IMG/VR virus record: IMGVR_UViG_2909303794_000006
DNA: 46,314 nucleotides
Strand: one strand, 5' to 3'
DNA from: a virus
Taxonomy: Duplodnaviria; Heunggongvirae; Uroviricota; Caudoviricetes
The notes under the pieces were generated by a model. That model worked only from the letters and a program-made list of their open reading frames with translations, was not told the origin of the DNA and did no database searches. The position numbers were made by a program, and so were the translations under genes. Positions 24,521 to 29,584 of the stretch are shown in pieces (position 1 is the stretch's first letter; the number at the start of each line of letters is the position of its first letter).

Positions 24521-24970
24521 TCATCGAAGGCATTGCGTCCTGATGTATTCCTGCAGGTAGTTAACCTGCGCGGTTATCCTGTCGATTCCACTTCGGAGAC
24601 GGTAATAATTGAGTTCAGCATCTGCTGTAAGTCCTGGGCTTTCTCCATCGCCCATGCCGCTGGCTCCGGTCGTTGACTTTGCACAGGTGGCGGCGACTTG
24701 CAGGCGCTTACGACCAGCAGAAACATCAGCACGGAGACTTTCGATAGTCGCGTTAGCATCAGCAAGCTCCTTTGTATATCTGGCGTCGAGTTCTGCTACA
24801 TCACGTTGACGCTTCTGCATATCAGCGATGATGGATGTGGCTTTATCGCGCTGTTCTTTGTAAGCGATGGCGTTATCACGGTAATGATTAACAGCCCATG
24901 ACAGACAGACGATGATGCAGATAACCAGAGCGGAGATGATTGCGGTTACCCTGCTCATTGCTGCCCCCAC
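24521..24970 (-). CDS. Rz: i-spanin Rz
   Basis: N-terminal TM helix plus coiled coil, lambda/P21 Rz-like. Confidence 0.85.
24574..24765 (-). CDS. Rz1: o-spanin Rz1 lipoprotein embedded in Rz in another frame
   Basis: lipobox VSAC followed by Pro-rich segment; fully inside Rz. Confidence 0.7.
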
Positions 24971-25452
24971 AAACAGACTTCACGCTCAATCTCACGACGA
25001 GTCATCAGGCCTTTCCATTGCTTACCGCCAGCGTATGTCCAGCGCCGTAACTGATCACATGCACCTTTAATATCGCCCTGGTTTATTTTGCGAAGAAGCG
25101 TCGATGTTCTGAAATTACCAGCGCCCACGTTGTAAACGAACGAGTAAAGAGCGCCGCGCGTTGTTTCCGGTATATCGACTTTGATGTACGGGTTAATTTG
25201 TCTGGCGACCATGGCAAGGTCTTTATTCAGGAGGGCTTTGCATTCTGCTTCGGTATACGTTTTACCGGGAATGATGTCTTTTCCGGTGTGTCCGTGACAT
25301 ACAGTCCATACGCCAACGATATCTTCGTATGGTATGTAGCTGACACCTTCCAGGCCATCGTCACCACTCGGACCAGTGATGAGCACAGACGCTATGGCAA
25401 CAGCCCCACCACCAATAGCAGCAGCAACAGCCTTGCGTAATGATGGCGACAT
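24955..25452 (-). CDS. R: SAR endolysin (phage lysozyme, P21 R-like)
   Basis: N-terminal Gly/Ala-rich signal-anchor-release helix; close to P21 R. Confidence 0.9.
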
Positions 25453-25667
25453 TATTCACCTCTCGCAGCCTTACGCTTATCTTCTTTAATCTTGAAATAA
25501 AGGTTTGTCAGATACGTCAGCAAGCCAAACACCAGGCTACCCAATACGCCTATTGCCACCCACTGGGATGGGGAGACTTTGTCCAGCAACTGCAGTAGCC
25601 AGTATCCCGTCCCCACCGCTGACGTGGTGTATGACACACCTGTTGTGATTTTTTCCATCTGGTACAT
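25452..25667 (-). CDS. S: pinholin (P21 S-like), probable dual start (MYQMEK)
   Basis: two TM segments and C-terminal [13 protein letters not shown] as in S21; start/stop overlap with R. Confidence 0.85.
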
Positions 25668-25700
25668 ACCCCGTCTCCCGTTATCCGGAAGCTGACAACA

Positions 25701-25730
25701 ATAAAAAGCCACCAGTTAATTCCTGATGGC
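25701..25730 (-). terminator. tR-prime-like terminator just upstream of the lysis cassette
   Basis: minus-strand hairpin GCCAUCAG-GAAUUAA-CUGGUGGC followed by UUUUUAU. Confidence 0.5.
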
Positions 25731-26532
25731 CCTGATGCATAAACGTCATAATACCTGACTGTTATGATTGACAATAATGATAATGTTTATATAGAAAGGT
25801 TCCCGATGTGTGTTACATATCATTTCTCCACGGGGAATATCCCCACGCCAGCGCAGACTCTTTTACCCGTTCTCTTCTGCGCTGGCTCTTTTTTATTATG
25901 CTGCTGCATTTACCTCTGGCACCAGGCTTTCTATCTCAACACAATACGTGGTACTTCTTGTAACCAATATCATAACGATTAATCGACATAGAATTTCTCC
26001 CGTGTACAGGAACAGAGTTAAAAAGCCGGAACCGGAATCAAATCACAGGATGACCATCTGCCAGTGGCAGGTCATAAAAAAAAGGCCGCGCCATGCGCAG
26101 CCAGAACTCACAAGGAAAATGATAGAAGGAAATAACATTAGTGATGTACGCATGGCGCCTCCCGCTAAGTTCTGCAATGATCAAACAGAACTCGCTACGT
26201 GCCCTTAAAACTCGATCATTTAGCCCCTCCAAGGAGGATTCACCATGCGGTTGATTTTTTAATAAACAGTAAACAAAAAAGTCAAGAATTATTCATTCTG
26301 TTCTTTCATCATCGGCCACAGCAATACCACAATGCCGCAGACCAGAGCGCCATCAGTCAGTACCAACATTATCCTGCTGGTGAAATCCATCATCACCATC
26401 ACTAAAAGCAGGATCACAACAGCAAGCAGACACAGTTTATAAAACAATGTTCAGAAAACGCATTCAGCATGCCTAAGGTTCTATTCCTACGAATAGCCAA
26501 CTTGCAACTTAAAATATTATTTATGCAGCCAA

Positions 26533-27291
26533 TTAAATTCTGGTCCTTACAATATCAACCTGAAGATTCTTATCTTGTGCTGATTGATAAATGACAAACC
26601 TTTTACTACCTGCATTGAAAGAAGTAGACAAAACCAGACAATTATCATAACGAGCAAGAACATAATACCAACCATCATTATAATTAATCATTTCATATTC
26701 TTTCTTAAACTGCGGTTTGTAATATCCTGTCAGAAATGAAAAAAGCCAGAAATATGCCACAAAAGCAATCATCACAATCTCAAAAAAATGTTTTTTTATA
26801 AATGGCTTATCATAGAAGCATGATACCGATAAAAATCGCCCATAAGATCTTATCGAAATTGTAACCGCCAGCGCAATCGCTGCTGACAGTAGCAAAAGAG
26901 GTACCTGAATCTTCTGTCTCAATATAGAAAACTCAATAATTGCCGGCACAAACAATAATTCCACAGCAAAATAAAGGCGAAATACATTTAGCTCTTGCAT
27001 AGAATGTTTTCTTTTCACTGCGAAAAAGAATACAACACCAATACCCCAACCGATAAGAAATATAGCAATGACGATAACTGCAAAAAATAAACTTCTGGCA
27101 ACATCATCAACACCTGCACCTACAATCCACCATGGGAAGCCGTAGTAAAAAGAAGTACCCCATCCATAGAAATAAGCACTCCCCCATCCAAGGCATCCCA
27201 TGTAGGCAATAAAAAGTGAAGAACTCCTGAGCAGCGCACCATCCTTCATAACCACCCCAATACAAGATGATAACATTGGCTTACAACTCAT
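26533..27291 (-). CDS. AT-rich polytopic membrane protein of unknown function (late-operon moron); start may be internal Met15 at 27249
   Basis: 252-aa ORF, several hydrophobic segments rich in W/Y/F/G plus C-terminal soluble tail; GC visibly lower than flanking phage genes. Confidence 0.65.
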   Translation of the reverse strand: MSCKPMLSSCIGVVMKDGALLRSSSLFIAYMGCLGWGSAYFYGWGTSFYYGFPWWIVGAGVDDVARSLFFAVIVIAIFLIGWGIGVVFFFAVKRKHSMQELNVFRLYFAVELLFVPAIIEFSILRQKIQVPLLLLSAAIALAVTISIRSYGRFLSVSCFYDKPFIKKHFFEIVMIAFVAYFWLFSFLTGYYKPQFKKEYEMINYNDGWYYVLARYDNCLVLSTSFNAGSKRFVIYQSAQDKNLQVDIVRTRI

Positions 27292-27449
27292 AACAAAAGC
27301 AATTCAATGCCGTCAAGAGGTTACAGGCTAAAAAACTCTATTACATTGCAGTCAGCATGTTTACTACACAAATACAATTCAGAGCATAAAAACTACTCGG
27401 CGGCAGGTTATTGAGACTCATCAATGACATGTAAAAAACGCCCATTATT

Positions 27450-27485
27450 GGTGTCAAGTTTCCCCAAAGTTATTCAAAAAGTCAA
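27450..27485 (-). promoter_or_regulatory. late promoter pR-prime / qut region downstream of Q
   Basis: TTGACT -35 and spacer resemble lambda pR-prime as I recall it; -10 reads GAAACT rather than TAAATT. Confidence 0.5.
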
Positions 27486-27527
27486 TATTATGCCGTTAAT
27501 ATGTTGCCATCCGTGGCAATCATGGCG

Positions 27528-28151
27528 CTAACGTGTGATCGCATTCAAAATGTTGTCTGCGATTGACTCTTCCTTGTGGCATTGCACAACCAGAGCGTCA
27601 TACAGCGGCTTAACAGTGCGTGACCAGGTGGGTTGGGTAAGGTTTGGGATTAGCATCGTCACAGCGCGATATGCGGCGCTTGCTGGCATTCTTGAATAAC
27701 CGACGCCTTTACATCTTCCGCACTCTTTCTCAGCAACTCTCCCCCACAGCTCTGTTTTGGCTATATCAACCGCACGGCCTGTACCGTGGCAATCTCTGCA
27801 TCTTGCGCCCGGCGTAGCGGCACTACGGCAATAATCCGCATAAGCGAATGTTGCGAGCACTTGCAGTACCTTTGCCTTAGTATTTCCTTCAAGCTTTGCC
27901 ACGCCACGGTATTTCCCCGATACCTTGTGTGCAAATTGCATCAGATAGTTGATAGCCTTTTGTTTGTCGTTCTGGCTGAGTTCGTGCTTACCACAGAATA
28001 CAGCCATTCCGAATCCGGCTTGTGATTGCGCCATCCCCATAGCAGCCATCACATCAGTACCGGAAAGAGAGTCAGAAGCCGTGGCCCGTGGTGAGTCGCT
28101 CATCATCGGGCTTTTTGGCGAATGAAATTTAGCTATGCTTTCGAGTCTCAT
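27528..28151 (-). CDS. Q: late antiterminator Q (lambda type)
   Basis: 207 aa, near-identical to lambda Q. Confidence 0.95.
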
Positions 28152-28813
28152 GCGCCTTCTCCCTGTACCTGAATCAATGTGAGGTTTCCGCAGAACACTG
28201 CGCCAGTATCGATATACATCTGGTTGGCAAATTTGAGTGGTTTCACTGCTGGCGTATGACCAAAGATGAACGTGTCCGCGCCTTTGATTTCTTTCACGAT
28301 CCCGTCTTGTGAGTTGCTGATTCGTTCGCGGTTCCAGATTACCTGCTGATGATCAACTGGCTTTCCAAACTCGTATTCGTCACAAGGATAATCGGCGTGG
28401 CAGATGACATATTTTTTATCTTTGCTCACCAGTTCGATGATTAACGGAAGTTCTTCTGCTTTATGGGCAAGAGCTTTAGCCAGAATTTCTTTGTCGTAAT
28501 CGAGATTAAAGAACCAGCCACCGCCATTAAGCAGCCAGTGATTGACGTTTCCACGCTCTGATAAGCCATCAATCATCATTTGCTCATGGTTTCCACGTAC
28601 AGCTCTGAACCAGGGGAATGTGATTAATTCCAGGCATTCTACGTTCTCTGTACCGCGATCAACCAAATCGCCCACCGAGATAAGCAGGTCTTTTTTGGTG
28701 TCGAATCCTATCGTCTCCAGTTTTTTCATCAGGTTCGTGTAGCATCCGTGCAGATCGCCAACTACCCAAATATTTCGGTATTTGCTGCCATCAATTCTTT
28801 CGTAGATATTCAT
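28148..28813 (-). CDS. ninI: Ser/Thr protein phosphatase (lambda orf221/NinI)
   Basis: metallophosphatase motifs GDLHG, GDLVDRG, GNHE. Confidence 0.9.
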
Positions 28814-29421
28814 GCAACCTCACTTCTGCTGTTTCGCAGTTTTTTAAGTTTCTGTTGATACTCCGCCTTGATGGCCCTGCACTCTTCGACAGTCCAGCGA
28901 TAGCGGTTATGGTTTGATTCGATTTCCTCTACTGCTTCCTGCCCGATGCGGCTAATCAGTTCGACGCGATACGGAACGAGATTTCCGCTTTTGTGCTGGT
29001 TGCACACCACGCATTGCTTGTGAATATTGCGTTCATCAAATCGGAGTTGAGGCGCCGCAGCAGTTGTCCGGTAATGCCCGGCATCCCACTGAGCAGACGT
29101 GAGCGTTCCGCACGAGATACATGGTAAGTCGCGGTCTCTTTCTCTGATGAAGGCGTTTACGGCTTGTTGGGCTTGTTTAATCCAGTAACTGCGGGGCTTT
29201 AAGGCGAGTTTTCGAATCTTAAGTTTATCTTTCTGTTTCTGCTCCTCTCGTCGTCGTTTCTTCTCTGCTGCCTTTTCCGCTTTTTCGCGTTCTTTGCTTC
29301 GTCGTTCGAGAGCTATCTTGGTTCCACACTCTGGAGAGCACCACCACTGATTGGCGAATGCAGGGTGAAACCATTCCCGACATTCATCGTTTTTACATCG
29401 TCTTCGCGCTGGTTTAGCCAT
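28810..29421 (-). CDS. ninG: NinG (Rap) recombination/junction-resolving protein
   Basis: 203 aa, lambda NinG-like with Cys clusters. Confidence 0.85.
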
Positions 29422-29584
29422 CGTCTTCTTCCTCGTGCATCGAGCTATTCGGATCGCTCATCAGTTCTGCGCAGCAGTGCTCACACACGTGAACTTCCAG
29501 CACATGCAGCTTCTGACCGCAGTTAGCGCACGTTAAAGCTCGCTCGACACTTCCTTGTTCGTAACTTCGATTTTGGTCAATCAC
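29414..29584 (-). CDS. small Cys-rich Nin-region protein (NinD/NinE-like), GTG start
   Basis: 56 codons not in ORF track; sequence ...[41 protein letters not shown]; start overlaps NinF stop, stop overlaps ninG start. Confidence 0.5.

Follow-up and report, generated by a model that had tools for sequence, protein, structure and literature searches.

What is an AT-rich gene for a membrane protein doing between the antiterminator gene Q and the lysis genes of a lambdoid prophage, at the position where Shiga toxin (Stx) phages carry stx? The prophage is that of IMG/VR virus record IMGVR_UViG_2909303794_000006, whose whole stretch of 46,314 nucleotides (nt) we call the window, and the gene is called tfpB here after the family to which its product was assigned. 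We lean towards the view that tfpB is an autonomous lysogenic-conversion moron, made up of a promoter, tfpB itself, a DUF3927 mini-gene and a terminator, and that its product, an inner-membrane protein of the TfpB family, acts on the envelope. The components of this putative cassette are the following, in the order of transcription.

27287-27316, minus strand: cassette-borne promoter-like element (-35 TTGACG at 27316-27311, TG at 27295-27294, -10 TATGAG at 27292-27287), a conserved block
26533-27249, minus strand: tfpB-family gene encoding a 238-residue inner-membrane protein (phrog_1521 match, precomputed PF27470 assignment, start fixed by homologues, ratio of nonsynonymous to synonymous substitution rates (dN/dS), AlphaFold2 model)
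26289-26447, minus strand: DUF3927 (P1 TciB-like) membrane mini-protein of 52 residues (PF13064, 3.4e-14; phrog_1470)
26075-26102, minus strand: first strong intrinsic terminator after the late promoter pR' (GGCUGCGC-AUG-GCGCGGCC and U8; terminator scan, -16 kcal/mol, z -2.8; annotated as a terminator in phage 434)

The open reading frame (ORF) that drew attention to the locus runs from 26533 to 27291 on the minus strand, encodes 252 residues and lies 237 nt 3' of the Q ORF. An earlier note, made from the letters alone, had placed the gene start at 27291. In the alignment, all 44 homologues of 236-240 residues start at the methionine encoded at 27249, after GGGGTGG. Since these homologues share a start, the tfpB coding sequence most likely spans 26533-27249 (minus strand) and yields a 238-residue product; the RefSeq version of the gene is 26533-27276. 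The dN/dS values were 0.05-0.09 against alleles that are 94-97% identical, 0.15-0.19 against the homologues from Shigella, enterotoxigenic Escherichia coli (ETEC) and Salmonella, and about 0.07 between Salmonella subspecies. tfpB is a real gene under strong purifying selection. The alternative of a spurious ORF is ruled out by dN/dS values of 0.05-0.19 taken together with the depth of the family, which comprises well over 100 homologues.

The striking AT-richness of the gene relative to its neighbours was confirmed. The GC content of the tfpB coding sequence is 36.4% (31% at third codon positions), while Q, the lysozyme gene and Rz have 50-52% and the whole window 50.9%. Recent acquisition, which the same note had read from this composition, does not follow: members of the tfpB family have 32-38% GC in every genomic context measured, so the low GC is a family-wide trait and not the sign of a recent event in this prophage.

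Profile searches placed the product in a catalogued family. The phrog_1521 profile (PHROGs, annotated as of unknown function) matched residues 31-252 of the 252-residue ORF over its entire length (1-222 of 222) with an E-value of 2.1e-154. An identical database protein and all 104 homologues matched carry a precomputed Pfam assignment to PF27470, named TfpB; the local copy of Pfam-A did not contain the PF27470 model, and this assignment comes from the precomputed annotation. By these matches, the tfpB product belongs to PF27470 TfpB/phrog_1521, both catalogued without a function. It is identical to RefSeq WP_001302581.1, a 'hypothetical protein'. Of the 5426 complete E. coli genomes, 692 (approximately 13%) carry its gene, nearly always at a DNA identity of at least 99%. 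The product was found in just 3 of 50,697 phage records. An exhaustive hidden Markov model (HMM) search of 1.84 billion representatives returned only 71 clusters; the TfpB family is therefore small. Full-length distant members occur in Neisseria, Actinobacillus, Gallibacterium, Avibacterium, Pasteurella and Haemophilus ducreyi, as well as in Mangrovibacter, Enterobacter and Klebsiella aerogenes. One database record names a family member 'protein tfpB' and another 'TfpB protein'. The name presumably comes from an ORF in the Moraxella pilin-inversion region, for which these two records are the only support found. A connection to type IV pili, which the name would suggest, was rejected; a literature search on tfpB in Moraxella found nothing.

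No family of known function was recovered in any of these comparisons. Scans of the tfpB product against NCBIfam, PADLOC and the local Pfam-A gave no match, and in the Pfam scan there was neither a toxin domain (including A or B subunits of AB5/Shiga type) nor a match to a lysis family. When all 21 sequences of the deep alignment were scanned with Pfam, only scattered chance matches to single members and no holin family came up, and a profile search of all PDB sequences yielded one chance match (E 0.67). In PADLOC-DB, zero defence families matched TfpB at E<=1, and likewise for the DUF3927 protein. Within the reach of sequence comparison, then, the product is unrelated to lysis, toxin or known defence families. 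The HMM search that the earlier note had proposed as a check thus supplied a family (phrog_1521, PF27470) and no match to any family of known function. The same note had described the protein as matching nothing and as the best candidate for an undescribed system. Against the first stand PF27470 TfpB, phrog_1521, an identical gene in phage 434, WP_001302581.1 and the Salmonella orthologue STM1630; against the second, the family is already catalogued and phage 434 carries an exact copy. At present tfpB is an ordinary, catalogued hypothetical membrane protein gene.

The evidence for autonomy of the cassette starts with its upstream region. The pattern CTTGAC-N16-TGn(T/A)AT is invariant, about 70 nt 5' of the start, in six cassettes that encode proteins of 56-100% identity and sit in different contexts. 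Conservation of this block at saturated synonymous divergence argues for an extended -10 promoter of the cassette's own, and we regard the CTTGAC-N16-TGnTAT block as the putative promoter. The promoter scan tool proposed an overlapping candidate, TTGTTA-18-TGtTATCAT at 27296-27267. The cassette has its own downstream terminator (26075-26102), as expected of a moron, and is inserted between genes that are adjacent in related phages. In phage mEp234, approximately 430 bp hold Q, pR', a U-run hairpin that carries no terminator annotation, a 51-residue ORF and then the holin gene, where the window has 1.86 kb. The remaining features of this region are as follows.

27528-28151, minus strand: lambda-type antiterminator Q, 207 residues (Pfam PF03589 Antiterm, 6e-58; RefSeq 'antitermination protein')
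27456-27484, minus strand: pR' late promoter and Q-binding element (TTGACTTTTTGAATAACTTTGGGGAAACT), from a base-for-base alignment to the annotated pR'/qut of mEp234 (promoter/qut annotated in HK97-like phages)
27388-27409, minus strand: decayed terminator allele (aacctgccgccgagtagttttt) with no stable hairpin, homologous to the phage 434 terminator that precedes the gene
25698-25733, minus strand: second terminator-like hairpin, directly 5' of the holin gene (-13 kcal/mol and a U-tract)
25452-25667 (or to 25712), minus strand: P21-type class II holin, the first lysis gene (Phage_holin_2_1, 2e-32; RefSeq)
24955-25452, minus strand: SAR-type (signal-anchor-release) lysozyme (Phage_lysozyme, 2e-45; RefSeq)
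24521-24958 (or to 24970), minus strand: Rz (Phage_lysis, 7e-35; RefSeq)

These ORFs and their Pfam matches agree with the placement of the gene on the late strand, 3' of lambda-type Q and pR' and 5' of the lysis genes. The idea drawn from that placement, that Q antitermination switches the gene on at prophage induction, is not borne out by the sequence between pR' and tfpB. The 38-nt stretch that includes 27388-27409 folds at -4.6 kcal/mol, no better than shuffled sequences. In the phage 434/Q82 alleles, a terminator (aacccgcu-gccg-aguggguu and a U-run) stands just 5' of the cassette, where a 42-nt stretch folds at -13.3 kcal/mol (z -3.75); the Escherichia albertii allele of this terminator folds at -9.1 kcal/mol. 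Among the IMG/VR upstream variants listed, each lambda-Q allele has the decayed form. A canonical intrinsic terminator between pR' and 26102 was found neither by the terminator scan tool nor by a separate scan of the whole pR'-to-holin transcript, and both tfpB and the DUF3927 gene of the window allele sit 5' of the first late terminator. With no terminator between pR' and tfpB, Q would not be required for transcription to reach the gene, and the promoter-like element about 70 nt 5' of its ATG points the same way. In addition, IS100 disrupts the nin region that separates pR from Q.

We propose the following mechanism. In the lysogen, the conserved extended -10 element of the cassette would serve as the promoter of tfpB. 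In the lambda-Q allele it is probably also reached from the constitutive pR', because no terminator intervenes. Q would only raise its expression, and would let RNA polymerase read through the two terminators in front of the holin gene. This implies a regulatory contrast between alleles: in the 434 allele, the cassette lies behind a terminator and should be Q-dependent, whereas in the lambda-Q allele it lies inside the constitutive pR' leader and should be Q-independent. From such a pair one could see what mosaic recombination does to the control of conversion genes at the stx-equivalent locus.

Hydropathy analysis of the protein gave four strong transmembrane segments (54-78, 92-110, 115-135 and 155-176), an aromatic and glycine-rich N-terminal helix (12-31) and, after the hydrophobic segments, a soluble C-terminal region. 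The AlphaFold2 model (56 sequences; pLDDT 73.6, pTM 0.65) has long helices at 3-36, 47-78, 89-111, 116-136 and 155-181, two short ones within 143-153, and a five-strand C-terminal domain at 184-235. Several transmembrane segments followed by a soluble C-terminal tail, as first read from the translation, are thus seen in both analyses; all told, the product has 4-5 transmembrane helices and a C-terminal beta domain of about 55 residues. Lysine and arginine residues of the family are concentrated in loops 79-91 and 136-156, from which, by the positive-inside rule, we infer a topology with the N-terminus inside, five transmembrane helices and the C-terminus outside. The conserved AYxYGWGxSxYYGxPWW motif, together with the DDxARS loop and the small beta domain, would then face the periplasm. 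The architecture recurs throughout the family, in alignments down to 12-30% identity: an N-terminal AYxYGWGxxxYYGxPWW motif, four more transmembrane helices, GxY(K/R)P and the C-terminal beta domain. No charged residue is invariant in the deep family alignment; a binding or structural role is therefore more likely than catalysis.

Genomic contexts show a cassette that travels. We surveyed 80 IMG/VR loci encoding the identical protein. tfpB is 3' of Q in all of them, with lambda-type Q in about 46 and Q82-like Q in about 33, and is followed by the DUF3927 gene in all but one (79 of 80); after DUF3927 comes a NanS-p esterase gene or a deletion remnant, and then the holin gene. Other homologues stand behind a PF06323-type Q or, as does a 68%-identical one, in the order PF06530/DUF1133 Q, N6/N4 methylase, two tRNAs, TfpB, LpxR (once with PmrD), NanS-p esterase, DUF1378, DUF826 and holin. 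This last arrangement is a Stx-phage-type scaffold, which makes the position of tfpB equivalent to the stx locus and upholds the original comparison with the slot of stx. Four Q types (lambda-Q, Q82-like, PF06323 and PF06530/DUF1133) thus precede tfpB cassettes. Beyond prophages, a 58%-identical homologue lies about 870 bp divergently upstream of eltAB on ETEC plasmids (L011 and L014-L017 in our numbering of loci; 2987-4134 versus 5001-5714), and tfpB is found on the Shigella virulence plasmid pINV in 106 PLSDB plasmid records, including pWR100. The Salmonella homologue STM1630 lies between sseJ and steB, one group of homologues lies beside iroBC among small unannotated ORFs, and in Citrobacter rodentium tfpB is divergent from an lpxR pseudogene and occupies the adh-trg-LysR site of the chromosome that also holds the gene in Salmonella. 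The homologues of H. ducreyi, Avibacterium and Neisseria are solitary among chromosomal housekeeping genes. Judged by these gene orders, the cassette is mobile, behind at least four unrelated Q modules as well as on virulence plasmids and islands, and has no obligatory partner gene.

A few observations on these loci are added here. The ETEC plasmids with tfpB and eltAB also carry the STb and EAST1 toxin genes, at a distance of a few kb. The sseJ-tfpB-steB locus of Salmonella and the lpxR-tfpB locus of C. rodentium share their site by adh, a methyl-accepting chemotaxis protein gene and a LysR gene, which suggests an old islet with exchangeable cargo. A contig of 3,054 bp labelled 'MAG: Veillonella sp.' carries a 100%-identical E. 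coli tfpB-DUF3927 cassette and is most likely a metagenome binning contaminant. An obligate two-gene system with DUF3927 was considered and rejected: DUF3927 is absent from the tfpB loci of Salmonella, Shigella, ETEC and H. ducreyi and travels only with the prophage allele that is at least 94% identical.

STM1630, the only family member with experimental data (H-NS binding, induction by Salmonella pathogenicity island 2 (SPI-2) conditions and in macrophages, and a replication phenotype), provides the model for the role of tfpB. This 717-bp Salmonella homologue was confirmed by primer sequence and gene table (PMC6785131). As described in the S1 Text of that paper, the gene has no known function and S. 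Typhi lacks it; its own promoter, with a mapped transcription start site and -10, drives its expression in SPI-2-inducing medium and in macrophages; two single-nucleotide polymorphisms inactivate the -10 in ST313 strains; and its deletion in strain 4/74 leads to more intramacrophage replication (PMC6785131 S1 Text). The S1 Text also reports it as H-NS-bound, which explains the lack of transposon insertions behind its 'required' label in transposon-insertion sequencing data (PMC6785131 S1 Text; PMC3632133), and cites the attenuation of signature-tagged mutants in calves and chicks (Morgan et al. 2004, cited in PMC6785131 S1 Text). One screen lists the deletion as hypermotile (PMC4219756). STM1630 resembles the window gene in family, length (238 residues), similar GC content and AT-richness, and lies in a horizontally acquired virulence islet with its own promoter. 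It differs in being chromosomal, between the effector genes sseJ and steB, and not in a prophage; it has no DUF3927, its transcription start site is about 200 nt upstream, and its promoter sequence is different from that of the window cassette. On the model of STM1630, which is H-NS-bound, induced with SPI-2 and in macrophages and restrains intramacrophage replication, the tfpB product would act on the envelope of the lysogen as a lysogenic-conversion or host-adaptation factor, and not in phage development.

Several points weigh against tfpB as an autonomous conversion moron. The -10 hexamer lacks the usual final T, which may mean a promoter that is weak or needs an activator; a gene this rich in AT is likely to be silenced by H-NS; and Rho-dependent termination or pausing in the leader of about 200 nt could block read-through from pR'. 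The C-out topology has the positive-inside rule as its only basis. Expression in the lysogen and any phenotype of the E. coli or phage TfpB are inferred, and the window protein is only 46% identical to STM1630. The Salmonella phenotypes are themselves modest. A clean-deletion follow-up remade the STM1630 mutant, and the altered-motility mutants named in its abstract do not include it (PMC4534456).

A wider and distinctly tentative proposal is that TfpB is a single-gene envelope determinant of enterics, Pasteurellaceae and Neisseria that serves in host-associated conditions, be it in intracellular growth, in the state of the envelope and lipid A, or by blocking the entry of phages or toxins. 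It would have been mobilised repeatedly beside toxin, effector and lipid A-modifying genes and, in lambda-Q prophages, placed inside the constitutive pR' leader, turning a '6S-like' transcript into the mRNA of a conversion gene.

How does the conversion moron fare against other explanations? Superinfection exclusion or anti-phage defence, in which TfpB, perhaps with the DUF3927 protein, would block DNA entry or abort infection by a competing phage, we consider rather unlikely. P22 SieA, T4 Imm and HK97 gp15 are single-gene inner-membrane superinfection-exclusion proteins, and by general analogy TfpB, a small prophage-borne inner-membrane protein that could act alone, resembles them. It is encoded in a known slot for accessory genes, its expression is probably Q-independent, and single-gene action would fit the absence of conserved neighbours. 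Yet no homology between TfpB and these three proteins was detected, PADLOC gave no match, and the distribution of TfpB extends well beyond phages: only 3 of the 50,697 phage records have it, its distant members in Pasteurellaceae and Neisseria are solitary among housekeeping genes, and the Salmonella orthologue is co-regulated with intracellular virulence genes. DUF3927, for its part, is not a conserved partner. The same prophage has other exclusion genes, which counts in favour of an exclusion role for tfpB: sieB (superinfection exclusion protein B; 36299-36880, minus strand) and ral (antirestriction; 37094-37294, plus strand) are both in the immunity region, so that known exclusion functions are already present. 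The earlier suggestion of a toxin or defence function found no positive evidence: besides the lack of PADLOC matches and toxin domains, the family includes solitary genes that stand on chromosomes away from any mobile element. A toxin role in particular is not supported.

A second alternative, which we hold to be improbable, makes TfpB an accessory of the envelope that assists or regulates the remodelling of outer-membrane lipid A (LpxR, PmrD) or has a more general protective function during host stress. What speaks for it is the recurrent company of lpxR. In Stx-phage-like prophages this gene and tfpB are convergent, in one case with pmrD next to them; in the C. rodentium chromosome the two are divergent; and in the Q82 module (phage 434, enteropathogenic E. 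coli and O157 prophages) lpxR is found about 1.3 kb 5' of tfpB. This module makes up 33 of the 80 IMG/VR loci, which have lpxR upstream wherever the contig reaches far enough. These three arrangements (L018-L020, 5970-6919; L021, 3863-4823; L001/L002/L012), one of them once including pmrD, could reflect functional linkage or shared moron hot spots. Obligate linkage to LpxR was rejected, since LpxR is absent from all lambda-Q alleles.

Still less probable is that TfpB is an orphan immunity protein against a membrane-targeting bacteriocin or a contact-dependent toxin. Small size, several spans of the inner membrane, solitary action and a scattered occurrence on mobile elements would suit this role, one homologue group is found in the iroBC island among small unannotated ORFs, and PHROGs labels the adjoining DUF3927 family 'TciB-like ... 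resistance to colicin'. However, the TciB label is a name inherited from the annotation of phage P1, none of the contexts examined has a cognate toxin gene next to tfpB, and the protein has no sequence or fold similarity to known immunity proteins. A late phage function, as a Q-activated lysis regulator (antiholin or holin-like) or virion-release factor, is the least credible: although a membrane protein encoded on the late transcript directly 5' of the holin gene invites it, the S21-type lysis cassette (holin, SAR-type lysozyme and Rz) is by its gene content complete without tfpB, related lambda-Q phages pass from pR'/tR' nearly straight to the holin, the family occurs on plasmids, islands and chromosomes without lysis genes nearby, and no holin family was matched.

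As a conversion moron, tfpB has an exact counterpart in phage 434, where CPT_434_68 ('putative membrane protein', OL657226) encodes a 238-residue protein 100% identical to that of the window. In both loci the gene comes after Q and is followed by DUF3927 ('TciB'), by a small lipoprotein-like ORF that has a terminator within it, and by the lysis genes. In phage 434, Q is Q82-like and lpxR lies upstream, the terminator just 5' of the gene is intact, and a NanS-p esterase gene stands ahead of the holin gene. In the window, Q is of the lambda type, the terminator is decayed and the esterase gene is missing. Like bor, lom, the lc/nmpC porins, stx and nanS-p, tfpB is an accessory gene of atypical composition beside late regulatory and lysis or morphogenesis genes, and it has in common with those lambda-type morons a promoter-like element, a downstream terminator and an envelope product. 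Unlike them, it encodes a predicted polytopic inner-membrane protein and not an outer-membrane protein, lipoprotein or secreted toxin, with no sequence relationship to any of them, and its cassette lies upstream rather than downstream of the first late terminator here. The residual interest of the locus lies in its striking association with virulence loci and in the allele difference in wiring to pR', which is testable. If the function of tfpB were worked out, this would annotate a protein found in approximately 13% of complete E. coli genomes, in phage 434, on Shigella plasmids and on ETEC plasmids encoding heat-labile toxin (LT), and also STM1630.

The prophage around the cassette is nearly complete. 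Strain 14EC007 of E. coli (NZ_CP024131.1) is 100% identical to the window over positions 22000-46314, and across the whole window the ORFs coincide with RefSeq genes of that record; RefSeq annotates int, xis, exo/bet/gam, cIII, sieB, cI, cro, cII, O, P, nin, Q, lysis, head/tail and lom genes. E. coli RM14723 matches the window over 24530-29956 only. Its related prophage (locus L022, 5669-17320) has no immunity region, and the major capsid gene there is interrupted by an element of P4-like or satellite type (with integrase, primase, Icd-like and capsid genes). IS100 (istAB) is inserted in ninB (30042-31843), between pR and Q, and an IS3-family element in cIII (38073-39286). With these insertions, prophage induction and N-dependent transcription into Q may be impaired.

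Three further ORFs deserve mention. On the plus strand at 25810-26208, RefSeq annotates a 132-residue 'hypothetical protein', antisense within the remnant where other alleles carry the NanS-p esterase; it looks spurious. A DUF1076 gene (1396-2034, minus strand) beyond the tail-fibre genes, flanked by insertion sequence (IS) elements, forms a second cargo locus; we take DUF1076 to be an NleG-type type III effector family. Finally, a short ORF at 26043-26177 (minus strand) starts with MRTSLMLFPSIIFLVSSGC, which has a lipoprotein-like signal, and contains the strong terminator; its equivalent in phage 434 is a 62-residue membrane protein.

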